The notes: generated by a model not told the origin, from the letters alone. 64,000 nucleotides of DNA from Escherichia phage vB_EcoM-101117BS1 (MZ234018.1); one strand, 5' to 3'; positions 2,433 through 64,000 are shown, counted from the stretch's first letter. Numbers and translations: made by a program.

Positions 2433-3320
2433 ATGTCAGTAGTAATTAATAATGTCAATGCAGTAATTAAATCTTTAGTTAATAAAAAATTGAATGAATG
2501 GACTGTACTTCGTCGTGGAGAGCCAGATAAATTTTTTCATAGATTTAACCCAACTTTGGATTTGAATGTTATTGACAGAGATGTTCATGCAGAAATTTTA
2601 GATAAGTTTAAAGTTGATATTGGATTTGGATTAGAAAAACATTTGCAGCGAACAAACGGGTCTGGAATGGGTTTATCTAATCGCATTATGAAAGCCCTTA
2701 ATAAAATTGGAGCATTGTCTCGTATTAACGCGAGTGAAATCCTTCATAATTATAATAAAGGATATGACCTTTATGGTCGACTAATGCCGAAATTATCATT
2801 TGACCAAATGATCGCAGATTTGTGGGAAAATCAACGACGATTATTAGCATTAGGCGCTCGATTAGCTAAAGGTCTAGATAAACAAATGATTTTTAAGACC
2901 AATAATACAGAAGACCTTAAATGCTTTAAATTTAGTATTCGCGGCGATGATTATTACGTCAGAGCTCGCTCTACAGATTATGTTAATATGGGGCATCATC
3001 TCTGTTTAGCTTTTGAAGTTTTAAAAGAAGCCGGAACATTAGAATATGTGTCTGGTGCTAAATGCCCGATTGGTTCAAGTTGTATTTTAATTTATCGCCC
3101 GGATGAATCCAGTTCATCTAAATTACCTACAAAACCTGTACCAGTTCGTAGTAACGAAAAACATTCTGAGCAAATTGATTATTTTAATAAGCAAATTGAA
3201 GAGCTGAATATTTCTATTCAACAGTATGACGATGAAATTTTCAGACTATCTGGATTGAGTAGTAAAGCTAAATCTGAGCGTGAAAAATTAATTAAAATTG
3301 TTGATTTACTTAAATCTTAA
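2433..3320 (+). CDS. hypothetical protein with C-terminal coiled-coil-like tail
   Basis: ATG at 2433 after GAGGAAAA SD (track start 2412 is TTG); C-terminal K/E-rich heptad-like segment. Confidence 0.55.
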   Translation: MSVVINNVNAVIKSLVNKKLNEWTVLRRGEPDKFFHRFNPTLDLNVIDRDVHAEILDKFKVDIGFGLEKHLQRTNGSGMGLSNRIMKALNKIGALSRINASEILHNYNKGYDLYGRLMPKLSFDQMIADLWENQRRLLALGARLAKGLDKQMIFKTNNTEDLKCFKFSIRGDDYYVRARSTDYVNMGHHLCLAFEVLKEAGTLEYVSGAKCPIGSSCILIYRPDESSSSKLPTKPVPVRSNEKHSEQIDYFNKQIEELNISIQQYDDEIFRLSGLSSKAKSEREKLIKIVDLLKS

Positions 3321-3328
3321 GGAACACT

Positions 3329-4333
3329 ATGAAAACTCGTTCTCAAATTGAAGATATGGTTCGTAATGCCAGCTATACCCGTAATGTTATGACATTTTTG
3401 TGCCAAAATAATTTAGACCCTGATAGAGTTAATAGTTCCATTCACTTTAAGTATATGAATAGCAGTGAATGGTTACGTCATTTTAGTAAAGCGGGATATA
3501 TTACACAAATGACTGCTCGTGAGCAGCTCACCGATTTCTGTAAAACTATTGATTATAAAAATCCTCTATTTGTTCAAGGCGTTGGTCAGAGTAAGGTCGA
3601 TTTATCAACAGGATTTTTTAATCCAAATCATTATCGTATTGAATGGAGATTTATTGCTCTATTTCGTAAACAATTAAAGCAAATTTTGTCTACTGCTAGT
3701 CGATTAAAAGGCTCTGATATTAACTTAAAGAATCTGAAATTTGATGGTTATACTCTTCAGATGGAAGTAAGACCATTAAAAGAAAATAATAGAACTGCAC
3801 GAATTAGCTTTAAACCTAATACAAAAAATTCTCTTTCAATTTGTGAATGTCTTAAATCACAGTTGACAGAAGCATTTAAGTATATGGATGTTGTTGCTGC
3901 TGTTCAATCTAAGATTTCGCAGCATTTCGAACGATTTAAATTAGATACGACAACATATGAACTTGATATGATCGTTTCATTTAAATATGATTTTTTGAGA
4001 AAGGACGAAGTTACACAAGAGAAAAAACCTGAACCCCAAACTAATTACTCATCAAACGATCCTAAATTTTGGATGTATAGTTCAGATAATAATGATGCAT
4101 GGAAATTTAATAAAGTGAATTTTCTTCCTGTTGAAAATCCGAGTCTTAAACCTGTTGAAAAATGGCACGCTGACGCGATTGAGAAGTCTATCAAGGCAGT
4201 AGATGATGAACTCGTTAAAGCAACTAATGAAGTGTTAGAAGCTGAAAAGATGCTAGAAAAAGCTCAAGAAAAAGTAAAAAATCTCACGAAGCAACGTTCT
4301 AAATTGAACAACGCACTAAATGCACTAAACTAG
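3329..4333 (+). CDS. hypothetical protein with C-terminal coiled-coil-like tail
   Basis: 334-aa ORF; C-terminus KATNEVLEAEKMLEKAQEKVKNLTKQ. Confidence 0.55.
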   Translation: MKTRSQIEDMVRNASYTRNVMTFLCQNNLDPDRVNSSIHFKYMNSSEWLRHFSKAGYITQMTAREQLTDFCKTIDYKNPLFVQGVGQSKVDLSTGFFNPNHYRIEWRFIALFRKQLKQILSTASRLKGSDINLKNLKFDGYTLQMEVRPLKENNRTARISFKPNTKNSLSICECLKSQLTEAFKYMDVVAAVQSKISQHFERFKLDTTTYELDMIVSFKYDFLRKDEVTQEKKPEPQTNYSSNDPKFWMYSSDNNDAWKFNKVNFLPVENPSLKPVEKWHADAIEKSIKAVDDELVKATNEVLEAEKMLEKAQEKVKNLTKQRSKLNNALNALN

Positions 4334-9056: not shown

Positions 9057-10870
9057 CAATTGAAAAAGAAATTGAAGGATTGATTCATAAAACTAATAAA
9101 GACCTTTTAAACGAGAATGCTAATAAAGATTCTCGTGTTTTTCCAACTCAACGGGACCTTATGGCTGGTATTGTGTCTAAACACATTGCCAAAAATATGG
9201 TCCCGTCTTTTATTATGAAAGCGCATGAAAGCGGAATTATTCATTTCCACGATATTGATTATTCCCCTGCTCTTCCATTTACTAATTGTTGTTTAGTAGA
9301 TTTAAAAGGAATGCTTGAGAATGGATTTAAGCTTGGTAATGCGCAGATTGAAACTCCTAAATCAATTGGAGTTGCTACTGCAATTATGGCACAAATTACT
9401 GCACAGGTTGCTTCCCATCAATACGGCGGAACGACTTTTGCTAATGTAGATAAAGTACTTTCTCCTTATGTTAAACGCACCTATGCAAAACATATTGAGG
9501 ATGCAGAAAAATGGCAAATCGCCGATGCACTGAATTATGCTCAATCTAAAACAGAAAAAGATGTATACGATGCATTCCAAGCTTATGAATATGAAGTAAA
9601 TACTCTCTTTAGTTCAAACGGACAAACGCCTTTTGTAACAATTACATTTGGTACGGGAACTGACTGGACTGAACGAATGATTCAGAAAGCAATTCTGAAA
9701 AATCGTATTAAAGGTCTTGGTCGTGATGGGATAACTCCTATTTTCCCTAAGCTTGTTATGTTTGTTGAAGAAGGTGTTAATCTTTATAAAGACGATCCGA
9801 ACTATGATATTAAACAGCTTGCTCTAGAGTGCGCAAGCAAAAGGATGTATCCTGATATTATTTCAGCTAAGAACAATAAAGCTATCACTGGTTCATCTGT
9901 TCCTGTTTCTCCGATGGGTTGCCGTAGTTTCTTGAGCGTATGGAAAGATTCGACTGGTAATGAAATTCTTGATGGACGTAATAATCTTGGTGTTGTAACA
10001 CTGAATCTTCCTCGTATCGCATTAGATTCTTATATTGGAACACAGTTCAATGAACAGAAATTTATCGAATTGTTCAATGAGCGAATGGATCTGTGTTTTG
10101 AAGCATTGATGTGTAGAATTAGTTCCTTAAAAGGAGTTAAAGCGACTGTTGCTCCTATTCTTTACCAAGAAGGTGCATTCGGGGTTCGTCTTAAACCTGA
10201 TGACGATATAATTGAGTTATTTAAAAATGGCAGAAGTTCAGTGTCCTTAGGATACATTGGTATTCACGAATTGAATATTCTTGTCGGTCGTGATATTGGA
10301 CAAGAAATTTTAACTAAAATGAATGCTCATCTTAAACAGTGGACTGAAAGAACTGGATTTGCTTTTAGTTTATATTCGACTCCTGCTGAAAACCTTTGTT
10401 ATCGCTTCTGTAAACTTGATACAGAAAAATATGGAAGTGTAAAAGATGTTACCGATAAAGGCTGGTACACTAACAGTTTCCACGTTTCAGTAGAAGAAAA
10501 TATTACTCCGTTTGAAAAGATTTCTCGTGAAGCGCCATATCATTTCATTGCGACAGGTGGTCACATTTCTTATGTTGAACTTCCTGATATGAAAAATAAC
10601 TTGAAAGGTCTTGAGGCCGTATGGGATTATGCTGCACAACATTTAGATTATTTTGGTGTTAATATGCCAGTAGATAAATGTTTTACATGTGGAAGTACCC
10701 ATGAAATGACTCCTACTGAAAACGGATTTGTTTGTTCTATTTGTGGAGAAACTGATCCTAAAAAGATGAACACCATAAGAAGAACATGTGGTTATTTGGG
10801 AAATCCAAACGAACGCGGATTTAATCTCGGTAAAAATAAAGAAATCATGCATAGGGTTAAACACCAATGA
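9053..10870 (+). CDS. nrdD: anaerobic ribonucleoside-triphosphate reductase NrdD
   Basis: 605 aa; C-terminal glycyl-radical motif RTCGYLG and Cys-rich zinc site; uninterrupted ORF. Confidence 0.95.
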   Translation: MTIEKEIEGLIHKTNKDLLNENANKDSRVFPTQRDLMAGIVSKHIAKNMVPSFIMKAHESGIIHFHDIDYSPALPFTNCCLVDLKGMLENGFKLGNAQIETPKSIGVATAIMAQITAQVASHQYGGTTFANVDKVLSPYVKRTYAKHIEDAEKWQIADALNYAQSKTEKDVYDAFQAYEYEVNTLFSSNGQTPFVTITFGTGTDWTERMIQKAILKNRIKGLGRDGITPIFPKLVMFVEEGVNLYKDDPNYDIKQLALECASKRMYPDIISAKNNKAITGSSVPVSPMGCRSFLSVWKDSTGNEILDGRNNLGVVTLNLPRIALDSYIGTQFNEQKFIELFNERMDLCFEALMCRISSLKGVKATVAPILYQEGAFGVRLKPDDDIIELFKNGRSSVSLGYIGIHELNILVGRDIGQEILTKMNAHLKQWTERTGFAFSLYSTPAENLCYRFCKLDTEKYGSVKDVTDKGWYTNSFHVSVEENITPFEKISREAPYHFIATGGHISYVELPDMKNNLKGLEAVWDYAAQHLDYFGVNMPVDKCFTCGSTHEMTPTENGFVCSICGETDPKKMNTIRRTCGYLGNPNERGFNLGKNKEIMHRVKHQ

Positions 10871-11337
10871 ATTATGATAGATTTTATCCTTGCGATTTTG
10901 TTAATGGCCCTGGTTGCAGGGTCGTTCTTTTCGTTACAGGTTGTTTGCATAAATGCGAAGGGTGTTATAATAAATCAACATGGAATGCTAGAAATGGTAT
11001 TCCATTTACTGGTGAAACACTAGAACAATTGATTGAATGTTTGAATAATGATTATATAGAAGGATTAACTATAACCGGAGGTGACCCTCTTTATCCTGAT
11101 AACAGAGACGTGATTCACTCTGTGGTTCAAACAGTAAAAAATCTTTATCCCAATAAAAGCATTTGGTTGTGGACAGGATATAAGTTTGAAGATATTAAAC
11201 AACTAGAAATGCTTAAATATGTTGATGTTATTATTGATGGGAAGTATGAGAAAAATCTTCCGACCAAAAAGCTGTGGAGAGGATCAGATAATCAGCGGCT
11301 TTGGTCAAATACCGATGGGGTGTGGAAACATGATTAA
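10867..11337 (+). CDS. nrdG: anaerobic NTP reductase activating enzyme NrdG (radical SAM)
   Basis: 156 aa; CLHKCEGC radical-SAM cysteine motif; start overlaps nrdD stop. Confidence 0.9.
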   Translation: MNYDRFYPCDFVNGPGCRVVLFVTGCLHKCEGCYNKSTWNARNGIPFTGETLEQLIECLNNDYIEGLTITGGDPLYPDNRDVIHSVVQTVKNLYPNKSIWLWTGYKFEDIKQLEMLKYVDVIIDGKYEKNLPTKKLWRGSDNQRLWSNTDGVWKHD

Positions 11338-15655: not shown

Positions 15656-15679
15656 AAACCAAAACAAAGAGGATATTAA

Positions 15680-16882
15680 ATGAAAGTATGTATTTTTATG
15701 GCTCGAGGTCTTGAAGGTTGTGGTGTAACTAAATTTTCTCTTGAGCAACGTGATTGGTTTATTAAGAATGGTCATGAAGTAACTTTGGTTTATGCTAAAG
15801 ATAAATCATTTACTCGTAATTGCGCGCATGATTATAAATCATTTTCAATTCCGGTTTTATTGGCAAAAGAATATGATAAAACACTTAAGCTGGTAAATGA
15901 TTGTGATATTCTAATTATCAATTCAGTTCCTGCTACTTCGGTTGAAGAAGACACTATTAATAACTATAAAAAAATTATTGATAACATTAAACCTTCTGTT
16001 CGTGTTGTAGTTTATCAACATGACCATTCTTCTCTTTCTTTGCGCCGAAATTTGGGATTAGAAGAAACTGTTCGTCGAGCTGATGTTATTTTTAGCCATT
16101 CTGATAATGGTGATTTTAATAAAGTTCTGATGAAAGAATGGTATCCTGAAACAGTTTCTCTGTTTGATGATATTGAAGAAGCACCGACAGTATATAACTT
16201 TCAGCCTCCTATGGATATTGCGAAGGTTCGGTCAACCTACTGGAAAGATGTTTCTGAAATTAACATGAATATCAACCGTTGGATTGGTCGTACGACTACA
16301 TGGAAAGGTTTTTATCAGATGTTTGATTTTCATGAAAAACATCTTAAACCTGCAGGACTAAGTACTATTATGGAAGGTCTGGAACGTTCTCCGGCGTTCA
16401 TTCCTATTAAAGAAAAAGGAATTCCATACGAGTATTATCGTCTTCATCAAGTAGACCAAATTAAAATTGCTCCTAATTTGCCAACGCAAATTCTTGACCG
16501 TTATGTAAATAGCGAAATGCTTGAACGCATGAGTAAATCCGGATTTGGTTATCAGCTAAGTAAGTTGGATAAAAAATATCTACAACGTTCTTTAGAATAT
16601 ACTCATCTCGAGCTTGGTGCATGCGGAACAATTCCAGTATTTTGGAAATCTACTGGCGAAAATTTAAAATTCCGTGTTGATAATACTCCGTTAATTTCTC
16701 ATGATAGCGGTATCGTTTGGTTTGATGAAAATGACATGGAATCAACATTTGAACGTATTAAAGAACTGTCATCTGACCGAGCTTTTTATGACCGTGAACG
16801 CGAAAAAGCTTATGAATTTTTGTATCAGCATCAAGATTCAAGCTTCTGCTTTAAAGAACAGTTTGACATTATTACAAAATAA
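15680..16882 (+). CDS. a-gt: DNA alpha-glucosyltransferase
   Basis: 400 aa; matches T4 alpha-glucosyltransferase. Confidence 0.9.
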   Translation: MKVCIFMARGLEGCGVTKFSLEQRDWFIKNGHEVTLVYAKDKSFTRNCAHDYKSFSIPVLLAKEYDKTLKLVNDCDILIINSVPATSVEEDTINNYKKIIDNIKPSVRVVVYQHDHSSLSLRRNLGLEETVRRADVIFSHSDNGDFNKVLMKEWYPETVSLFDDIEEAPTVYNFQPPMDIAKVRSTYWKDVSEINMNINRWIGRTTTWKGFYQMFDFHEKHLKPAGLSTIMEGLERSPAFIPIKEKGIPYEYYRLHQVDQIKIAPNLPTQILDRYVNSEMLERMSKSGFGYQLSKLDKKYLQRSLEYTHLELGACGTIPVFWKSTGENLKFRVDNTPLISHDSGIVWFDENDMESTFERIKELSSDRAFYDREREKAYEFLYQHQDSSFCFKEQFDIITK

Positions 16883-16898
16883 AGGGCTTCGGCCCTTT
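16881..16898 (+). terminator. UUCG-loop hairpin after a-gt
   Basis: aaagggcttcggcccttt. Confidence 0.5.
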
Positions 16899-16899
16899 A

Positions 16900-16923
16900 G
16901 CTTTATACGGAGTTTGATATAAT
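16900..16923 (+). promoter_or_regulatory. MotA-box-like middle promoter candidate
   Basis: GCTTTA 16900-16905, 12-bp spacer, TATAAT 16918-16923. Confidence 0.35.
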
Positions 16924-17062
16924 GATATTTCTTGGATATGTGATACTTTTTCTCGCATTTTATCTATTCACTAGAGCATGTTGGATTGGGTTCTTTAGCA
17001 CTCCAGATGGATTTATTTCAATAATTTTATTTTGCATTTCAATGACGGTTCTTGATATATGA
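16922..17062 (+). CDS. small membrane protein (at the position of T4 47.1)
   Basis: 46-aa hydrophobic ORF; stop overlaps gene 47 start. Confidence 0.35.
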   Translation: MIFLGYVILFLAFYLFTRACWIGFFSTPDGFISIILFCISMTVLDI

Positions 17063-18078
17063 AAATTTTAAATTTAGGTGATTGGCATTTAGGCGTTAAA
17101 GCCGATGATGAGTGGGTTCAATCCATTCAGTTGGATGGAATTAAGCAAGCGATAGAATATTCTAAGAAAAATGGAATTACTACCTGGATTCAATACGGCG
17201 ATATTTTTGATGTGCGAAAAGCAATTACGCATAAAACTATGGAGTTTGCTCGTGAAATAGTTCAAATGCTTGATGATGCTGGTATTACCCTACATACTGT
17301 TGTAGGAAACCATGATATGCATTTTAAAAATACTTTAACTCCAAATGCCTCTACTGAGCTTTTGGCTAAATATCCTAATGTTAAAGTATATGATAAGCCT
17401 ACTACGGTAGATTTTGACGGGTGTTTGATTGATTTGATTCCTTGGATGTGCGAAGAAAATACTGGTGAAATTCTTGAGCACATCAAAACTTCATCTGCTT
17501 CTTTTTGTGTTGGTCACTGGGAACTGAATGGATTTTATTTTTATAAAGGAATGAAATCTCACGGTCTTGAACCTGATTTCCTTAAGACTTATAAAGAGGT
17601 GTGGTCTGGTCACTTCCATACTATCTCTGAGGCTGCTAACGTCAGATATATTGGGACACCATGGACACTAACCGCAGGTGACGAGAATGACCCTCGTGGG
17701 TTCTGGATGTTTGATACAGAAACAGAACGAATGGAATTTATTCCAAACAATACTACCTGGCATCGTAGAATTCATTATCCATTTAAAGGAAAAATTGACT
17801 ATAAAGATTTTACAAATCTATCAGTACGTGTTATAGTAACTGAAGTAGACAAAAATCTAACGAAGTTCGAATCTGAACTAGAAAAAGTTGTGCATTCATT
17901 ACGAGTTGTGTCAAAGATTGATAACTCTGTCGAGTCAGATGACAGTGAAGAAGTTGAAGTTCAATCTCTTCAGACGTTGATGGAAGAATACATTAATGCA
18001 ATTCCAGACATCACTGATTCTGACCGTGAAGCACTTATTCAATATGCAAATCAGCTATATGTAGAGGCAACACAATGA
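17059..18078 (+). CDS. 47: recombination nuclease subunit gp47 (Mre11-like)
   Basis: 339 aa; N-terminal LGDWHLG phosphoesterase motif; matches T4 gp47. Confidence 0.9.
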   Translation: MKILNLGDWHLGVKADDEWVQSIQLDGIKQAIEYSKKNGITTWIQYGDIFDVRKAITHKTMEFAREIVQMLDDAGITLHTVVGNHDMHFKNTLTPNASTELLAKYPNVKVYDKPTTVDFDGCLIDLIPWMCEENTGEILEHIKTSSASFCVGHWELNGFYFYKGMKSHGLEPDFLKTYKEVWSGHFHTISEAANVRYIGTPWTLTAGDENDPRGFWMFDTETERMEFIPNNTTWHRRIHYPFKGKIDYKDFTNLSVRVIVTEVDKNLTKFESELEKVVHSLRVVSKIDNSVESDDSEEVEVQSLQTLMEEYINAIPDITDSDREALIQYANQLYVEATQ

Positions 18079-27779: not shown

Positions 27780-28520
27780 ATGATTAGTGACTCTATGACA
27801 GTTGAAGAAATCCGTCTTCATTTGGGGCTTGCATTAAAAGAAAAAGATTTCGTAGTTGATAAAACTGGTGTTAAAACTATTGAAATTATTGGCGCATCAT
27901 TTGTAGCAGATGAACCGTTTATTTTTGGCGCTCTTAATGATGAATACATTCAGCGTGAACTTGAATGGTATAAATCTAAGAGCTTGTTTGTTAAAGATAT
28001 TCCAGGTGAAACACCGAAGATTTGGCAACAAGTAGCATCTTCTAAAGGTGAAATTAACTCGAATTATGGTTGGGCTATCTGGTCAGAAGATAACTATGCT
28101 CAATATGATATGTGTTTAGCTGAACTTGGTCAAAATCCTGATTCTCGACGTGGTATCATGATTTATACTCGTCCATCCATGCAATTTGACTACAATAAAG
28201 ATGGCATGTCAGATTTCATGTGTACGAATACCGTACAGTATCTGATTCGTGACAAGAAAATCAATGCGGTTGTTAACATGCGCTCAAATGACGTGGTCTT
28301 CGGATTCCGTAATGATTATGCATGGCAAAAATACGTATTAGATAAATTAGTATCTGATTTGAATGCAGGCGATTCAACTCGTCAGTATAAAGCAGGTTCT
28401 ATTATATGGAATGTTGGAAGTCTTCATGTATATTCTCGTCATTTTTACTTGGTTGATCATTGGTGGAATACTGGCGAAACTCATATTGTGAAAAAAGATT
28501 ATAACGGTGAGTGGAAATGA
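27780..28520 (+). CDS. 42: dCMP hydroxymethylase gp42
   Basis: 246 aa; thymidylate-synthase-like; matches T4 gp42. Confidence 0.9.
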   Translation: MISDSMTVEEIRLHLGLALKEKDFVVDKTGVKTIEIIGASFVADEPFIFGALNDEYIQRELEWYKSKSLFVKDIPGETPKIWQQVASSKGEINSNYGWAIWSEDNYAQYDMCLAELGQNPDSRRGIMIYTRPSMQFDYNKDGMSDFMCTNTVQYLIRDKKINAVVNMRSNDVVFGFRNDYAWQKYVLDKLVSDLNAGDSTRQYKAGSIIWNVGSLHVYSRHFYLVDHWWNTGETHIVKKDYNGEWK

Positions 28521-29359
28521 TTCAATTCGTAATTCCAAGTTATCAGCGTGTTGGGGCAGTTTCTGCCCTTGATATGTTTCCGACTGATTATGAACCCCAT
28601 ATTGTAGTGCGTGAACACGAAGAAAAAGCTTATTATGATGCCTATGGGTCTAGAGCTAAAATTGTAACTATTCCTGATGATGTAAATGGAATTGCCGGTA
28701 CTCGTAAAGCAATTACTGATATGTATGCAGGTCAACGAATCTGGATGATTGACGATGATACTACTATTCGTATGAGTTCAATGCGAAAAAGAGATGATCG
28801 TCGTTGTGTAGATAAAGTCAATCAATTGACTCGTGAACAGTTCTATGAATTGATTCAATATGTTGAGGATGCCATGGATTGCGGGTATTATCACGGTCAT
28901 GCTCGTCTACCTATTTTTAAAATTACTTCATCTTGGGGTAATTATCGTGAAAATTCATATGGATTCACGAATACATGGTATGACCTTGGAAAACTTACTA
29001 CAGAACAAATTGGGTATGGAAAAATTGATTTATGCGAAGATATGTATGCATTTCTCAATTTAATTAATCAAGGTTATCCGCATTTGGCCTTGTTCAAATA
29101 TCTAGTTGTATCTGGAAAAGCACAAGCTCCTGGCGGGTGCAGTTCAATTCGTAGTAATTCTAAACATAATAGAGCGCTTGAGCAAATCAATAGAGAGTTT
29201 CCAGAACAAGCTCGTTGGAAAACTTCTAATATTGAAAAACGAAAATCGTTGGGTGAAGAAGACGAGCCATTAAAGGTTCTTCGCATGTGTGTTTCGCGTA
29301 AAGAAAAATCAGAAGCATTTCATAAGTTTAATGCTATTCATCCGATAGCAGTTGATTAA
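28517..29359 (+). CDS. DNA glucosyltransferase (beta-alpha-gt-like, T2/T6 type rather than T4 b-gt)
   Basis: 280 aa in the b-gt position; sequence unlike T4 351-aa beta-gt as recalled. Confidence 0.55.
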   Translation: MIQFVIPSYQRVGAVSALDMFPTDYEPHIVVREHEEKAYYDAYGSRAKIVTIPDDVNGIAGTRKAITDMYAGQRIWMIDDDTTIRMSSMRKRDDRRCVDKVNQLTREQFYELIQYVEDAMDCGYYHGHARLPIFKITSSWGNYRENSYGFTNTWYDLGKLTTEQIGYGKIDLCEDMYAFLNLINQGYPHLALFKYLVVSGKAQAPGGCSSIRSNSKHNRALEQINREFPEQARWKTSNIEKRKSLGEEDEPLKVLRMCVSRKEKSEAFHKFNAIHPIAVD

Positions 29360-29436
29360 TGCCTAAATTTATTGTGTTATAATTACTCTATCTTTAACCA
29401 GTGAGGAAAATATAATGATGCCTATGGAAAAAATGA

Positions 29437-30618
29437 ATGTCTATTGCAGATTTAAAATCCCGTTTGATTAAAGCTTCCACTTCTAAAATGACTGCTGAAC
29501 TGACTACATCTAAATTCTTTAATGAAAAGGATGTAATCCGTACAAAAATCCCAATGCTTAATATTGCTATTTCTGGTGCGATTGATGGCGGCATGCAGTC
29601 TGGTTTAACTATTTTCGCAGGGCCTTCTAAACACTTTAAATCAAATATGTCTTTGACTATGGTTGCGGCATATTTGAACAAATATCCTGACGCGGTTTGT
29701 CTATTCTATGATAGCGAATTTGGTATTACTCCAGCTTATTTGCGATCCATGGGAGTTGACCCGGAACGAGTAATTCATACACCAATCCAGTCAGTTGAAC
29801 AACTGAAAATTGACATGGTGAATCAGCTTGAAGCTATTGAGCGTGGTGAAAAGGTTATTGTATTCATCGACTCAATCGGTAATATGGCTTCTAAGAAAGA
29901 AACGGAAGATGCCTTGAATGAAAAATCTGTGGCAGATATGACTCGTGCTAAATCACTGAAGTCATTATTCCGTATTGTTACTCCTTATTTTAGCATTAAA
30001 AATATTCCATGTGTTGCGGTTAACCATACAATTGAAACAATTGAAATGTTTAGTAAAACCGTGATGACAGGTGGTACAGGCGTAATGTATTCGGCTGATA
30101 CTGTATTCATTATCGGTAAACGCCAGATTAAAGATGGTTCTGATCTTCAGGGGTATCAATTTGTTCTAAATGTAGAAAAATCTCGTACCGTTAAAGAAAA
30201 AAGTAAATTCTTTATTGATGTTAAATTTGACGGTGGTATCGATCCTTATTCTGGATTGTTAGATATGGCTCTAGAATTAGGATTTGTAGTAAAACCTAAA
30301 AATGGCTGGTATGCCCGTGAATTTCTTGATGAAGAAACCGGTGAGATGATTCGCGAAGAAAAATCTTGGCGTGCAAAAGATACCAACTGCACTACATTCT
30401 GGGGTCCTTTATTTAAGCATCAACCATTCCGAGATGCTATTAAACGTGCTTATCAGTTAGGTGCTATTGATAGTAATGAAATTGTTGAAGCTGAAGTTGA
30501 TGAATTGATTAACTCAAAGGTTGAAAAATTTAAATCTCCAGAAAGTAAAAGTAAATCAGCTGCTGATTTAGAAACTGACCTCGAACAGTTAAGTGATATG
30601 GAAGAATTTAATGAATAA
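29437..30618 (+). CDS. uvsX: recombinase UvsX (RecA-like)
   Basis: 393 aa; Walker A GPSKHFKS; near-identical to T4 UvsX as recalled. Confidence 0.95.
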   Translation: MSIADLKSRLIKASTSKMTAELTTSKFFNEKDVIRTKIPMLNIAISGAIDGGMQSGLTIFAGPSKHFKSNMSLTMVAAYLNKYPDAVCLFYDSEFGITPAYLRSMGVDPERVIHTPIQSVEQLKIDMVNQLEAIERGEKVIVFIDSIGNMASKKETEDALNEKSVADMTRAKSLKSLFRIVTPYFSIKNIPCVAVNHTIETIEMFSKTVMTGGTGVMYSADTVFIIGKRQIKDGSDLQGYQFVLNVEKSRTVKEKSKFFIDVKFDGGIDPYSGLLDMALELGFVVKPKNGWYAREFLDEETGEMIREEKSWRAKDTNCTTFWGPLFKHQPFRDAIKRAYQLGAIDSNEIVEAEVDELINSKVEKFKSPESKSKSAADLETDLEQLSDMEEFNE

Positions 30619-35632: not shown

Positions 35633-35645
35633 ATGTCCTCCTTAT

Positions 35646-35669
35646 TGCTTTATATATTTATTGTATAAT
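35646..35669 (+). promoter_or_regulatory. MotA-dependent middle promoter candidate upstream of gene 56
   Basis: TGCTTTA 35646-35652, 11-bp spacer, TATAAT 35664-35669. Confidence 0.5.
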
Positions 35670-35703: not shown

Positions 35704-36222
35704 ATGGCTTACTTTAATGAATGTGCTCATTTGATCGAAGGTGTTGATAAAGCAAATCGTGCATATGCTGAGAATATTATGCACAATATTGACCCACTGC
35801 AGGTTATGCTTGATATGCAGCGGCATTTACAGATTCGTTTGGCTAATGATAAACCAGAAACAAATCGTCATCCTGATTCACTTGAAACCGCAGGAGAAGT
35901 TCTTGCTTGGTTGCGAAACCAAGACGATTATATCGCAGATGAAACTCGCGAACTATATACTTCTCTTGGTGGTATGAGTAATGGTGAAAAAGAAGCTTCT
36001 GCTGTATGGAAACCTTGGAAGAAACGTTATTCTGAAATGCAATCCAAGAAAATTCAAGATTTATCTCCCGAAGATCAGCTTGAAATTAAATTTGAACTGA
36101 TTGACCAATTTCACTTTTTCATGAATAAATTTATTGCTCTTGGAATGTCAGCTGAAGAAATCTTTAAACTTTATTACCTGAAAAATGCTGAAAACTTCGC
36201 TCGTCAAGACCGAGGTTATTAA
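35704..36222 (+). CDS. 56: dCTP pyrophosphatase gp56 (MazG-like)
   Basis: 172 aa from ATG 35704 (MAYFNECAHLIEGVDKA...). Confidence 0.7.
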   Translation: MAYFNECAHLIEGVDKANRAYAENIMHNIDPLQVMLDMQRHLQIRLANDKPETNRHPDSLETAGEVLAWLRNQDDYIADETRELYTSLGGMSNGEKEASAVWKPWKKRYSEMQSKKIQDLSPEDQLEIKFELIDQFHFFMNKFIALGMSAEEIFKLYYLKNAENFARQDRGY

Positions 36223-36422
36223 TGGCTCGTTTAAATAAGCGTCAGCTTAAGAAAGCCCATAAGAAACGTATTGACCAGCTATTTAAAGATTATAACAAGG
36301 AGCTCGTATGTGAGCTCTTAACTAATCAACTTCGTATGGTTGATTGGGTTATAGAAGAAGGTCCTGACGAAATTTTTGTCAGCGAAGAAGCCTTAAAATT
36401 AATTATAGAGCATTCAAAATGA
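36222..36422 (+). CDS. hypothetical protein
   Basis: 66-aa ORF. Confidence 0.4.
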   Translation: MARLNKRQLKKAHKKRIDQLFKDYNKELVCELLTNQLRMVDWVIEEGPDEIFVSEEALKLIIEHSK

Positions 36423-36628
36423 AATTTGATTTCTACGCGTGGCAAAAAGCCGGGAGACCGGCTACTCGAGCATTTGGTTCTGATGGATATAATATTAGAG
36501 CCCATTGGAAATTTAATGCTCCAGAAGATTATTCTCCGGTAATTATTAACGGTGATGTTGTTATATTAACTAAAATCGGATATTTTAACGTTCCGCGAGA
36601 ATTTATTATAAATAATCATGTAATTTAA
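36419..36628 (+). CDS. hypothetical protein
   Basis: 69-aa ORF. Confidence 0.4.
   Translation: MKFDFYAWQKAGRPATRAFGSDGYNIRAHWKFNAPEDYSPVIINGDVVILTKIGYFNVPREFIINNHVI
36607..36614 (+). promoter_or_regulatory. T4 late promoter (TATAAATA) upstream of soc
   Basis: TATAAATA located 30 nt upstream of the soc ATG. Confidence 0.5.
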
Positions 36629-47804: not shown

Positions 47805-49622
47805 ATGATTAAGAATGAAATTAAAATTCTGAGCGATATTGAACATATCAAAAAGCGTAGCGGCATGTACATTGGCTCTTCAGCTAATGAAATGCATGAG
47901 CGCTTTCTGTTTGGTAAATGGGAAAGTGTTCAGTATGTACCTGGTCTTGTTAAGCTTATTGATGAAATTATCGATAACTCAGTAGATGAAGGTATTCGTA
48001 CTAAGTTTAAATTCGCAAATAAAATTAATGTTACTATTAAAAACAATCAAGTAACAGTTGAAGATAACGGTCGTGGTATTCCGCAGGCAATGGTTAAAAC
48101 ACCTACCGGTGAAGAAATTCCTGGTCCTGTTGCTGCATGGACTATTCCAAAAGCAGGTGGTAACTTTGGTGATGATAAAGAACGCGTCACTGGCGGTATG
48201 AATGGTGTTGGTTCTAGTTTGACAAACATTTTTTCTGTGATGTTTGTCGGTGAAACTGGTGATGGTCAAAATAATATTGTAGTTCGTTGTTCAAATGGCA
48301 TGGAAAATAAATCATGGGAAACTATTCCTGGAAAATGGAAAGGAACTCGTGTTACTTTCATTCCTGATTTTATGTCATTTGAAACTAATGAGCTGTCCCA
48401 AGTTTATCTTGACATTACATTAGATCGTCTCCAGACACTTGCTGTTGTTTATCCTGATATTCAATTTACCTTTAATGGTAAAAAGGTTCAGGGCAATTTT
48501 AAGAAATATGCACGCCAATATGATGAGCATGCTATTGTTCAAGAACAAGAAAATTGTTCTATTGCGGTTGGTCGTTCACCGGATGGTTTTCGTCAATTAA
48601 CATACGTCAATAACATTCATACTAAGAATGGTGGCCATCACATTGACTGTGTTATGGATGATATTTGTGAAGACCTTATTCCACAAATCAAACGTAAGTT
48701 CAAAATTGATGTGACTAAAGCACGCGTTAAAGAATGTTTGACTATCGTTATGTTTGTCCGTGATATGAAAAACATGCGATTTGATTCTCAAACTAAAGAG
48801 CGTTTGACTTCTCCATTTGGCGAAATTCGTAGTCATATTCAGCTTGATGCTAAAAAGATTTCACGCGCTATTCTAAATAATGAAGCAATTCTAATGCCGA
48901 TTATCGAAGCTGCTTTGGCTCGTAAATTGGCAGCAGAAAAAGCAGCTGAAACTAAAGCAGCTAAAAAGGCCTCTAAGGCAAAGGTTCATAAACATATTAA
49001 AGCGAATCTTTGCGGTAAAGATGCTGACACTACTCTTTTCTTGACTGAGGGTGATTCTGCTATCGGATATCTTATTGATGTTCGTGATAAAGAACTTCAC
49101 GGTGGTTATCCATTGCGTGGTAAAGTTCTTAATAGCTGGGGTATGTCATATGCCGATATGCTTAAAAACAAAGAACTATTTGATATTTGCGCAATCACTG
49201 GTCTAGTTCTTGGTGAAAAAGCTGAAAACTTGAATTATCATAATATTGCTATTATGACTGATGCTGACCATGATGGTCTAGGAAGCATTTATCCTTCTCT
49301 GCTCGGGTTTTTTAGTAATTGGCCAGAATTGTTTGAACAAGGACGAATTCGCTTTGTCAAAACTCCTGTAATCATCGCTCAGGTCGGTAAAAAACAAGAA
49401 TGGTTTTATACAGTCGCTGAATATGAGAGTGCCAAAGATGCTCTACCTAAACATAGCATCCGTTATATTAAGGGACTTGGCTCTTTGGAAAAATCTGAAT
49501 ATCGTGAGATGATTCAAAACCCAGTATATGATGTTGTTAAACTTCCTGAGAACTGGAAAGAGCTTTTTGAAATGCTCATGGGAGATAATGCTGACCTTCG
49601 CAAAGAATGGATGAGTCAGTAG
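47805..49622 (+). CDS. 39: DNA topoisomerase II large subunit (gyrase B-like), fused 39+60 form
   Basis: 605 aa from ATG 47805; ATPase and TOPRIM regions in one continuous ORF. Confidence 0.9.
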   Translation: MIKNEIKILSDIEHIKKRSGMYIGSSANEMHERFLFGKWESVQYVPGLVKLIDEIIDNSVDEGIRTKFKFANKINVTIKNNQVTVEDNGRGIPQAMVKTPTGEEIPGPVAAWTIPKAGGNFGDDKERVTGGMNGVGSSLTNIFSVMFVGETGDGQNNIVVRCSNGMENKSWETIPGKWKGTRVTFIPDFMSFETNELSQVYLDITLDRLQTLAVVYPDIQFTFNGKKVQGNFKKYARQYDEHAIVQEQENCSIAVGRSPDGFRQLTYVNNIHTKNGGHHIDCVMDDICEDLIPQIKRKFKIDVTKARVKECLTIVMFVRDMKNMRFDSQTKERLTSPFGEIRSHIQLDAKKISRAILNNEAILMPIIEAALARKLAAEKAAETKAAKKASKAKVHKHIKANLCGKDADTTLFLTEGDSAIGYLIDVRDKELHGGYPLRGKVLNSWGMSYADMLKNKELFDICAITGLVLGEKAENLNYHNIAIMTDADHDGLGSIYPSLLGFFSNWPELFEQGRIRFVKTPVIIAQVGKKQEWFYTVAEYESAKDALPKHSIRYIKGLGSLEKSEYREMIQNPVYDVVKLPENWKELFEMLMGDNADLRKEWMSQ

Positions 49623-60683: not shown

Positions 60684-61340
60684 TTATTTAGCCCTTCCTA
60701 ATATTCTGGCCGCCTGAGCACATATTGATTCAAGGCGGTCATTACTTATATGATCATTTCTATACCAGTACATTGTTATTGTTCCAGCATAGATATTATC
60801 CAAATTAAAATATGGACAACTATACATGTAGTTTATTTCGGGAGTAGGCTTTTTAGTTGGTAAAAAAGCAAATTTTGAGTCAGAATAATAATGACGTCCA
60901 TTTAAATGAACTATATATTCATCCATAGTTTTATCAACAGGATATCCTCCAAGTGATTTTTCAGTTATTGTTGAAGGTAATCTTCCTTCGTATGCTATAA
61001 TATCAACAAAATAGTTTAAGTTTTTAGGGCGGAAAGAATACACCGCACTAAAGTCTGCCTCAGATGATATATGAACTATCTGGAGTTGTTCCAGGGCGAC
61101 AGATTCAAAGCGTGCATTTCTTTCCTTTTCAATAATTTCACTGTATGTTTCATACTTTGATTGCTTATAGTACTCAAAGAAACTATCTCCCCTATACCAA
61201 ACAATCGCCATCATAAATAAAAGAATTACGACAGCTACCCGGGAAGCAAGAACCTTCCCAGTAGCGTTATCTTTGAACAAGCGATCTAGAACACCAAACA
61301 GAATATCAGAGGGCGAAAATGATATTCTAGGTGCTGCCAT
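60684..61340 (-). CDS. t: holin T
   Basis: 218 aa with N-terminal TM segment; matches T4 holin. Confidence 0.9.
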   Translation of the reverse strand: MAAPRISFSPSDILFGVLDRLFKDNATGKVLASRVAVVILLFMMAIVWYRGDSFFEYYKQSKYETYSEIIEKERNARFESVALEQLQIVHISSEADFSAVYSFRPKNLNYFVDIIAYEGRLPSTITEKSLGGYPVDKTMDEYIVHLNGRHYYSDSKFAFLPTKKPTPEINYMYSCPYFNLDNIYAGTITMYWYRNDHISNDRLESICAQAARILGRAK

Positions 61341-61357: not shown

Positions 61358-61365
61358 TATTTATA
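61358..61365 (-). promoter_or_regulatory. T4 late promoter (TATAAATA) for gene t
   Basis: - strand reads TATAAATA, then AGGAGG SD, then the t ATG. Confidence 0.55.
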
Positions 61366-61912
61366 CGTAATGCTTGAATAAACGCTTATACCAAGGTTTC
61401 CGTTCTTTTTCAGGCCATGAAGGGAATTCACCACCTAAATGCTCATGCTTTTCTAAAAGAGCAAAGAACCGCTTAAGGTTTTTATAATAAAATTTTTCCT
61501 TTTTATTGGCGACAGAAGCTTCAATCATATTATTTAAAACTTGGAACTCTTTATATAATTCTTCAATTTTTCTATTACGAATTAAAACTCGCTTATATGT
61601 TTCGTCTTCTTTCCAACCGTCATCAGTCCATATATCAAATTCGCCAGGCTCATCAAAAGTTATACCAACCGGGCTTCCAATTTCACTTATAAAAATTTCT
61701 TCTTTATTAAAAGTCCATGCTCGTTTTCCGCGATGGTCTTCTTCATAAATCCAATCCTGAGTACGTTCATCAAATACAACTGCATATCCTTCTTTAGGTT
61801 CTAAAGGTTTTTTAATTGTTGAATGAGCAGGAAGACCGAGGCCTTTAACCGGTTTGTAATTTTCTTCTTTGTAAAATTCTTTAGTGTCAAAATAATAATG
61901 ATATATTTTCAT
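61361..61912 (-). CDS. 38: gp38, T4-type tail-fibre assembly chaperone
   Basis: 183 aa MKIYHYYFDTKEFYKEENYKP...; matches T4 gp38. Confidence 0.85.
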   Translation of the reverse strand: MKIYHYYFDTKEFYKEENYKPVKGLGLPAHSTIKKPLEPKEGYAVVFDERTQDWIYEEDHRGKRAWTFNKEEIFISEIGSPVGITFDEPGEFDIWTDDGWKEDETYKRVLIRNRKIEELYKEFQVLNNMIEASVANKKEKFYYKNLKRFFALLEKHEHLGGEFPSWPEKERKPWYKRLFKHYV

Positions 61913-61920
61913 ATTTAGAA

Positions 61921-61934
61921 GGGGCCGAAGCCCC
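61921..61934 (-). other. UUCG-loop hairpin between genes 37 and 38
   Basis: - strand reads ggggcttcggcccc. Confidence 0.4.
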
Positions 61935-61939
61935 TCTCC

Positions 61940-64000
61940 TTATGCTAAACGAACGATATAGTTAAAAGCAATGTTTTTAACCGTGTTTTCTGTATTACCT
62001 GTACTATTTACAGTGATAGTATGACCATGCGAGCCAATTGCTACCTTGTGGGTATGAGCACCGATACCTACAGTATGGGTATGAGCACCAATACCTACTG
62101 TGTGAGCATGGTTACCTGTAGTGCTTGTAGTACCAGACCAAGTATGAGTATGAGCACCGTCTGAAGAAGTTTTGGCTATATTCGACCCTGCAGTAGCACC
62201 GTTCACGGTTCCAGTGAATTTAGCGTTGGCGTTTGCACCTACACTATTATATCCGTCATAGAATATGTTATTGGGTATGCCGGCTTGTATCTGAGGACCT
62301 GAGCGCGCATGTTGGTGTGCACCAGCAGAACTCGTAGTACCGCTTACAGTATGAGAGTGGTTACCTGTGGTATTGCTAGTCTTAGTGCCATAGTCAAAGC
62401 TACTTGTCGTCTTAGTACCATAATCAAAACTCGACGTAGTTTTAGTACCCAAGTCAGTACTTGAAGCCGATGCACTATGGCTATGAGCCTTAACACCATC
62501 GGCTTCTGCGCTTAATACAGCTCGACCACTTGGTTTACCTTTAATAGTTTGCCCGCGCATATCTGGAATTACGCCAGATGGGTAAGCCATAGCCAATTTT
62601 GGGTATGCAGACTTATCAAAAGTCTGGCCTTCCATAATAGCGTAACCGTCAGGAGGAGTATCCGTTGGCCATGGAATAGGAGCACCGATTGGGTAACTCG
62701 ATACAATATCGGTTTTAAGTGATTCAATTGTACTGTTTAAATTAGCAAAATTGCCAGAACCACCTGTAATATTGCCGTCTGTACCTAAATAAACTGAACC
62801 ACCAGCAGAAACACGCTTAGGAGATATAAAATCACCATTTTTGTTAAATTCCCAACCTAAATCCTTTATAATAGCGCCAGTCGAACCGCCATCGCCGCCT
62901 TTATGATAATGAACTCTGAAGTTACCGCCGTTAATTAGAGTTCCCAGAGAATAACAACTGTTTCCTTGGACATATCGTTGTTTCAAAATAGGAACGTAAG
63001 TACTTTTATCTGTACGATTAATATTCATATAGAATGGAGCACGAACGTTTTCATTATTTTGTGAAGCAAAAGACCCTGCACCAGCCGGGCGAACTGTGTC
63101 AGTACATTCAGCATCAATATAAGCTGCTTGTCCTACCTGCATACGGTAATTAGGAGAAATGCGACTATTACTAGTAACAACAACAAGTTTGGTATCGTTG
63201 TCCACAGTAATCATATTACCGCCAGCGCCATCATCGCCTAACGTAACAGAATGGCGCATTTGTACCATACCATTATTAAGACTAATACTAAGTGGGCGGA
63301 GATTACTTATTCCACCACTTTCACCGGCATCTTTAGGAGTCGGGATAATATGTAATGCTGTTTCTGAGCGACGGAAAATAGCACCGTATTCGGCATTCCA
63401 AATTCTTAATGCATCAGCAGTTCCACCAATTTTTACTTGTCCAGTAATAGAAGAACCACCTTGGACAAACAAACCATTAGACATGGTAACATTACCGACT
63501 AAAGTGCTTAATCCATTAACTTTAAAACTTCCGTCAGTAATAATACTTCCTCTAGCATTAACTTGTCCATTGAACTGGGTTACAACAGGCCCAGTAGTTT
63601 CAGAGCCACTTGGAGCCACACGCTGTGAATAAAAATAATATCCTTGTCCATCAGCTACTTCAAAAACCGTTTCACGATTACGATCGCCAGATGCGTTAAA
63701 TGAATTACCCCATGCTTTAACAGTTACATAGCTTTTATTCTGACCAGCACGAGTACCGCCTTCCCACAAAATTTGCTTAGTGCCATCAATTGTAGTAGTT
63801 GGAGCGAATGTTAGCCCAGCAGTAGAATTATTAGCTGCTAAATATATGCCATTATATATTGAAAGCTGCTTAACAGATGTAATACCGCCATCAGCATAAA
63901 ACATTACATTATTAGAGCCAGTTACCAATTTCAAAATACCCGGGTTAACTTCCATGCCTTCTTGAGTATTAATATTAGTTTTGCCTTTACCACGGAAATA
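61940..64000 (-). CDS. 37: long tail fibre distal subunit gp37 (5'-partial; continues beyond window end)
   Basis: reading frame stays open to the window edge; C-terminal His-rich [33 protein letters not shown] repeats as in T4 gp37. Confidence 0.9.
62018..62158 (-). repeat. tandem codon repeats encoding the HxH-rich segment of the gp37 tip
   Basis: near-identical ~24-nt units (gggtatgagcaccgatacctacag...) on the + strand. Confidence 0.6.
62378..62449 (-). repeat. tandem ~30-nt repeats encoding [10 protein letters not shown] units in gp37
   Basis: protein reads [24 protein letters not shown]. Confidence 0.5.

Follow-up and report, generated by a model that had tools for sequence, protein, structure and literature searches.

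The DNA analysed here (the window) is a 64,000-nt stretch from Escherichia phage vB_EcoM-101117BS1 (MZ234018.1), and its end is occupied by genes for the distal long tail fibre and cell lysis on the minus strand. Gene 37, encoding the long tail fibre distal subunit, is represented by its 3' two thirds at 61940-64000 (686 codons and a stop codon at 61940-61942). Its reading frame stays open up to the end of the window and the 5' third lies outside; the full-length homologue has 1091 aa in phage FelixPlatter versus 1026 aa in T4. Gene 38 starts 27 nt downstream of gene 37 and is a 183-aa ORF on the minus strand (61361-61912, stop codon 61361-61363). The 27-nt spacer between the two genes holds a minus-strand hairpin, GGGGC-UUCG-GCCCC (61921-61934), with a computed fold of -15.6 kcal/mol and a z-score of -2.4, and in phage G53 this site is annotated as a putative terminator. 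The downstream neighbour is the holin gene t (60684-61340, minus strand), an ORF whose product shares 97.2% of its amino acids with the T4 holin, and homologues of asiA, arn and motA lie beyond it. T4 shares the gene order 37-38-t, and its order 37-38-t-asiA is found reversed in the window. A late-promoter-like box, TATAAATA as reverse complement, is present at 61358-61365 and overlaps the stop codon of gene 38.

Over its entire length, the product of gene 38 shares 98.9% identity with T4 gp38; it is 99.5% identical to gp38 of phage TuIb, and exactly the same protein is encoded by FelixPlatter, teqdroes and teqhad. More distant matches were found to PHROG 105 ('tail fiber assembly', E 3.6e-45) and to lambda Tfa (~30% identity, E 2e-10, tblastn), while a Pfam search of gp38 returned no family at E <= 0.001. 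In T2/T6-type phages the same locus fulfils the same host-recognition role with a different division of labor: gp37 is capped by a ~260-aa gp38 that is itself the adhesin and is present in the virion (PMC3157838). In this adhesin, an N-terminal domain serves for attachment and a C-terminal one, which has glycine-rich motifs, for specificity (Trojet et al., PMC3157838). T4 gp38, on the other hand, is a chaperone that is not part of the virion (PMC6957217; PMC3157838). The length of 183 aa and the matches to T4 gp38, PHROG 105 and lambda Tfa identify the window protein, as judged by homology, as a T4-type, Tfa-like tail-fibre assembly chaperone and not an adhesin; its chaperone role would be carried over from T4 gp38, and gp37 would bear the tip. 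The T2/T6-type adhesin was ruled out as a candidate for this locus, in agreement with the original prediction.

The C-terminal part of gp37 displays the collar, needle and head architecture of the T4 fibre tip. The T4 gp37 fragment in PDB 2XGF (residues 785-1026) matches it with a phmmer E-value of 1.5e-95 (query 9-286, chain 2-242), PHROG 295 matches gp37 at E 4.6e-112, and the window protein as a whole is 67% identical to T4 gp37 390-1026. Preceding the needle is a Collar domain (Pfam PF07484) at 62543-62686 on the minus strand, which covers residues 438-485 of the translated 685 aa, scores 44.8 bits (cut-off 24; E 1.3e-11) and aligns near-identically with the collar of 2XGF. A span of the needle (62018-62488, minus strand) carries eight HxH motifs, predicted to be iron-coordinating sites, at 62474-62488, 62348-62362, 62306-62320, 62141-62155, 62099-62113, 62072-62086, 62045-62059 and 62018-62032. 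They are arranged as three ascending and five descending motifs; the crystallised T4 tip contains seven iron atoms for its seven HxH motifs (PMC6957217). All 16 histidines in the last 207 aa of gp37 reside within the eight HxH motifs, and none of 20,000 shuffles yielded eight (mean 1.16).

Between the third and fourth HxH motifs lies the predicted head, or receptor-contacting, segment (62156-62305, minus strand). At ~50-52 aa it is ~17 aa longer than its T4 equivalent of ~34 aa, and no alignment with T4 was possible there; more broadly, the counterpart of T4 gp37 residues ~907-985 is unalignable, while the last 27 aa are identical to T4. The segment is identical to that of FelixPlatter (Bas40) and differs from that of TuIb at three residues. 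The tip had been described as T4-type before, and this holds for its architecture; its variable sequence is unrelated to T4 and is of the TuIb type.

Two families of tandem repeats flank the head, both read on the minus strand. The ascending-arm repeat (62357-62446; TRF period 30, 2.4 copies) comprises two units that encode the same 10-aa FDYG peptide (62417-62446 and 62387-62416) and a degenerate third 10-aa unit (62357-62386). The descending-arm repeat (62018-62098; TRF period 27) consists of VGIGAHTHT (62072-62098), VGIGAHTHK (62045-62071) and VAIGSHGHT (62018-62044). The numbers of FDYG units, HxH motifs and xIGxHxH units are thus 2/8/3 in the window compared to 1/7/2 in T4. The His-rich HxH repeats and tandem 10-aa units that had been noticed in gp37 were recovered as eight motifs and two exact units, and the tip does not align end to end with T4 at equal repeat number (two versus one FDYG units, eight versus seven HxH motifs).

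How such a tip is built is known for T4, where gp38 and gp57A help three gp37 chains to fold into a collar and a six-stranded needle with seven irons held by HxH histidines, and where a small head surface binds OmpC and LPS (PMC6957217; PMC5221442; PMC11705849). We propose that the window proteins work in the same manner. Three gp37 chains would fold with the help of gp38, supplied by the adjacent downstream gene, and, by analogy to T4, of gp57A. The chains would form a collar, followed by a needle of six intertwined strands stabilised by metal ions, with one HxH motif from all three chains binding each ion. A small head domain at the tip of the needle would then contact the outer-membrane porin OmpC. 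With eight HxH sites instead of seven, the needle would have one more layer than that of T4, the extra layer being made of one added 10-aa FDYG unit in the ascending arm and one 9-aa xGIGxHxH unit in the descending arm. By homology with T4, we infer the binding of iron in eight metal layers and the trimer geometry of the window gp37.

The receptor-recognition module is not new to the literature. Over 61361-64000 it is 99.9% identical at the nucleotide level to phage vB-Eco-KMB22 and 99.8% identical to teqhad, FelixPlatter (Bas40), Ozark and others; comparison with FelixPlatter, KMB22, teqhad, Ozark and teqdroes gives an overall range of 99.2-99.9%. FelixPlatter (MZ501065) and these other four phages also have gene 39 fused and their genes in the same order, and FelixPlatter in addition has a gp38 and a 280-aa glucosyltransferase that are 100% identical to those of the window. 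Between FelixPlatter and the window, 4 of 686 aa differ in gp37, none of them in the head segment. In the remainder of the window, identity to any single record is only ~96-98%, and the phage is therefore a distinct isolate. When the needle-coding last 588 nt of gene 37 were used as query, we found GenBank X55191 with 98.8% nucleotide identity, a record of genes 37, 38 and t of phage TuIb (Montag, Hashemolhosseini & Henning 1990). The last 267 aa of TuIb gp37 are 98.5% identical to the window protein, and the repeat architecture is the same (2 FDYG, 8 HxH, 3 xIGxHxH). Four substitutions separate the two: three lie in the head (I/F, S/T and S/N) and the fourth is a Thr to Lys change directly after the seventh HxH motif (AHTHK), which the window alone carries among the sampled sequences. 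With its repeat layout, this tip type was thus already published in 1990. The receptor-recognition module is therefore a known and well-characterised one that is near-identical in many sequenced phages. We are highly confident that the region belongs to a Tequatrovirus, a T-even phage resembling teqdroes and KMB22, and that its module is of the long-known TuIb/Bas40 type.

This type assignment suggests a receptor. TuIb is reportedly the classical OmpC (protein Ib) phage, as attributed to Datta, Arden & Henning in 1977. For FelixPlatter (Bas40), dependence on OmpC was demonstrated in the BASEL study with a knockout and its complementation (PMC8594841). Near-identity to OmpC-dependent phages makes OmpC the best prediction for the primary receptor of the window phage, a prediction that would help to select phages for cocktails and to foresee resistance via loss of ompC. 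An alternative is that the same fold serves another receptor, in which case the small number of substitutions that set the protein apart from Bas40 and TuIb, or changes in its shaft, would direct it to LPS or a different porin. Close tips can indeed use different porins: gp37 of TuIa, an OmpF phage by the assignments that PMC9659904 quotes, matches the repeat architecture exactly and is 79.6% identical to the window protein over the last 387 aa. The unique Thr to Lys change beside an HxH motif, one of the four differences from Bas40, could also be taken to favor a switch. However, the head segment from the third to the fourth HxH motif is identical to that of the OmpC-dependent Bas40, and the four differences between these two proteins spare the tip, affecting instead the shaft, an FDYG unit and the descending arm of the needle. 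We therefore consider a change of receptor extremely improbable and retain OmpC as the predicted one.

The genes surrounding the tip invite a comparison with T4, to which the window is collinear over 92% of its length with a mean nucleotide identity of 94%. The gaps in collinearity correspond to T4 mobile elements (I-TevII, mobC, mobB, segA, segF and 60.1/mobA), to a swap of glucosyltransferases and to the gene 37 tip. No homologue of any of these mobile elements was found in the window, nor one of T4 b-gt. Gene 39 is uninterrupted (47805-49622, plus strand), and its 605-aa product, a topoisomerase II large subunit, corresponds to T4 gp39 and gp60 together. The site of T4 b-gt and segA is occupied by a gene for a 280-aa protein with a Pfam TAGT domain (28517-29359, plus strand), annotated in relatives as a beta-glucosyl-HMC-alpha-glucosyltransferase (ba-gt). 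Both the fused gene 39 and the non-T4 glucosyltransferase had been noted before, and both are present. Their reading as T2/T6-type features in a mosaic genome had the polarity wrong. Among the phage records searched, only 43 contain the mobA/60.1 cassette, by which gene 39 is divided into 39 and 60, and only 29 contain T4 b-gt (at least 90% identity), compared to 471 with the 280-aa ba-gt (at least 95% identity); T4-type gp38 (at least 90% identity) was found in 79. By these counts T4 is the outlier, and what looked like T2/T6-type features is the norm of the genus: most members carry a fused gene 39 and ba-gt, which form a normal background, not an unusual mosaic. A common bias is thereby corrected, as T4 departs from the rest of its genus in splitting gene 39/60, in carrying b-gt and in having a needle with seven HxH motifs.

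Within gene 37 itself, the relation to T4 changes over short distances. Gene 38 and the 3' ~135 nt of gene 37 are 89-100% identical to T4 at the nucleotide level. A variable cassette at ~62078-62437 cannot be aligned with T4; identity returns to 87-96% at ~62438-62572 and is ~64-80% further upstream. Gene 37 is thus a fine-scale mosaic relative to T4, which is a known pattern. The edges of the variable cassette coincide with the two repeat blocks, a placement that agrees with the model in which conserved motifs are the sites of recombination (Tetart et al. 1998, cited in PMC3157838 and PMC5221442).

A more dynamic scenario, close to the original prediction, would be that a T4-derived adhesin cassette recombined recently into a T2/T6-like backbone and that its repeats are live copy-number substrates that shift host range. 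The fine mosaicism of gene 37 and the position of the cassette edges within the repeat blocks would suit it, and there is precedent in the recombination at conserved motifs just mentioned and in gene 37 duplications by which T4 widens its host range (Tetart et al. 1996, as cited in PMC3157838, PMC6957217 and PMC5221442). A metagenomic relative, contig L005 (IMG/VR 3300030021_000020), appears to lack a single GIGAHTH unit, unless its assembly is collapsed there, and this too would count in favor of the scenario. The premise of a backbone that is T2/T6-like as opposed to T4-like is contradicted by the genus-wide rarity of the T4 versions, and the same combination of module and backbone recurs in several sequenced phages, among them KMB22, FelixPlatter and teqdroes. 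The majority-state counts and the collinearity with T4 led us to reject the idea that a T4 tip was recently transferred to a T2/T6 backbone.

The repeats speak against the second half of that scenario. The layout of 2 FDYG, 8 HxH and 3 xIGxHxH is constant in 11 of 11 non-T4 T-even isolates, which span ~80-99.9% nucleotide identity, include two Mosigvirus phages (~80%) and have eight phage records among those compared; copy-number differences between closely related isolates were absent from this sample. The only exceptions to the layout are T4 (1/7/2) and L005. At the DNA level the copies have diverged: the two identical FDYG peptides are encoded by sequences that match at only 21 of 30 nt, all nine differences being synonymous, and the GIGAHTH units match at 23 of 27 nt, the longest exact repeat being 14 nt. 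Neither the FDYG nor the GIGAHTH units offer copies that are near-identical and long enough to be prone to slippage or homologous exchange. Identical peptides with nine synonymous differences in 30 nt show that the duplication of the FDYG unit is old and has been kept at the protein level, with little DNA homology left for slippage. The proposal that the repeats are substrates for host-range variation is not borne out by this invariance, and active copy-number variation was rejected. Both architectures are also found in the side tail fibres of E. coli prophages, which also counts against this scenario. Overall, we consider recent transfer combined with live repeats very unlikely. The earlier observation of the module is confirmed and its interpretation partly supported; we prefer to see the region as an established TuIb/Bas40-type module in a background that is normal for its genus.

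The prophage side tail fibres deserve attention as relatives in their own right. In E. coli lambdoid and other prophages, Stf proteins carry a C-terminal module of ~200 aa that is 56-66% identical to that of gp37 and has both FDYG units and HxH motifs, with a Tfa-like chaperone gene downstream (PMC9659904). The N-terminal shafts and the phage backgrounds are unrelated, however, and the head segments differ. We assembled 95 unique complete needle sequences from T-even phages, IMG/VR contigs and database proteins. Most hits of the IMG/VR scan and the protein search were side tail fibres of E. coli prophages, with only two T-even contigs, and these hits were used for architecture statistics only.

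Across these sequences the two arms of the needle vary together. The number of descending minus ascending HxH motifs equals the number of FDYG units, as counted in the first inter-HxH segment, in 94 of the 95 unique relatives, which fall into only five architecture classes and represent few independent events. Four classes obey this arm rule (2/4/2, 3/4/1, 3/5/2 and 4/6/2 for ascending motifs, descending motifs and FDYG units), and the sole exception is the metagenomic contig L005. The structure of the T4 tip offers a possible explanation. Contacts between G921 and F970 and between H929 and G964 (PMC6957217) would set an antiparallel register of i+j~1892, which would place FDYG at 902-905 opposite GAHTH at 987-991. 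Since FDYG and GAHTH would face each other in this register, an FDYG unit and a GIGAHTH unit would be the halves of one needle layer. We tentatively propose, as a possibility that falls somewhat short of probable, that the repeat families depend on each other as halves of a single layer of the iron needle, one 9-aa xIGxHxH unit in the descending arm matching each His-free FDYG unit in the ascending arm, and that needle length is quantised, changing only by paired insertions or deletions. The extra FDYG and GIGAHTH units of the window relative to T4 would then represent one coupled change. If true, arm matching would explain the near-absence of single-unit slippage variants, and, if also not stated before, it would be usable as a design rule for engineering fibre length. 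More generally, it could guide the engineering of T4/lambda-type fibre tips.

The C-terminal needle of gp37 is found well beyond the T4-like phages: a module of about 200 aa occurs in thousands of prophage tail-fibre proteins of E. coli, Shigella and Enterobacter at 56-66% identity, where it is joined to unrelated N-terminal shafts and carries head segments of 30-52 aa. The E. coli prophage loci with the module in our comparison are L006-L083. Among the 95 unique needle sequences, the rule that the excess of HxH motifs on the descending over the ascending arm equals the number of FDYG units has a sole exception, L005 (IMGVR_UViG_3300030021_000020, match 3001-3831). This needle, whose head is TuIa-like, has two ascending-arm FDYG units versus only two descending-arm xIGxHxH units. 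The missing unit could reflect a natural single-unit deletion, or the 27-nt repeat could have been collapsed during assembly.

Within the needle of the window phage, the codon following the seventh HxH (62045-62047, minus strand) encodes Lys, so that the second GIGAHTH unit ends in AHTHK. In contrast, the corresponding residue is Thr or Ser in TuIb, TuIa, T4, FelixPlatter and all other sampled relatives, and GIGAHTHKV was absent from every fetched locus and protein.

Elsewhere in the window, a homologue of the T4 alpha-glucosyltransferase a-gt (90.8% aa identical) is encoded at 15680-16879 on the plus strand. The phage therefore possesses both a-gt and the beta-glucosyl-HMC-alpha-glucosyltransferase ba-gt (28517-29359, plus strand), the same pair that is typical of T2/T6-like modification. 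The T4 dam methyltransferase gene (T4 16846-17625) had no counterpart by tblastn, neither at window 35644-35663, where the homologues of genes 61 and 56 adjoin, nor anywhere else in the window; phage KMB22 likewise shows no dam at this site. Most breaks in collinearity with T4 arise because T4 homing-endonuclease and intron insertions are absent: I-TevII, mobC, mobB, segA, segF and 60.1/mobA are all missing from the window, the window positions concerned being 9588-9591, ~10867-10887, 15664-15689, 28503-29448, 36186-36606 and 49222-49287.

C(UUCG)G hairpins are a classic observation in intercistronic regions of T4. Genes 37 and 38 are separated by 27 nt that contain one, GGGGC-UUCG-GCCCC with a UUCG tetraloop (61921-61934, minus strand), with a fold of -15.6 kcal/mol and a z-score of -2.4, and the record of phage G53 annotates a putative terminator at the matching position. 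At the other end of gene 38, a TATAAATA box matching the T4 late-promoter consensus (61358-61365, minus strand) overlaps the stop codon, and ~10 nt downstream of this box the holin gene t has its ribosome-binding site, AGGAGG.
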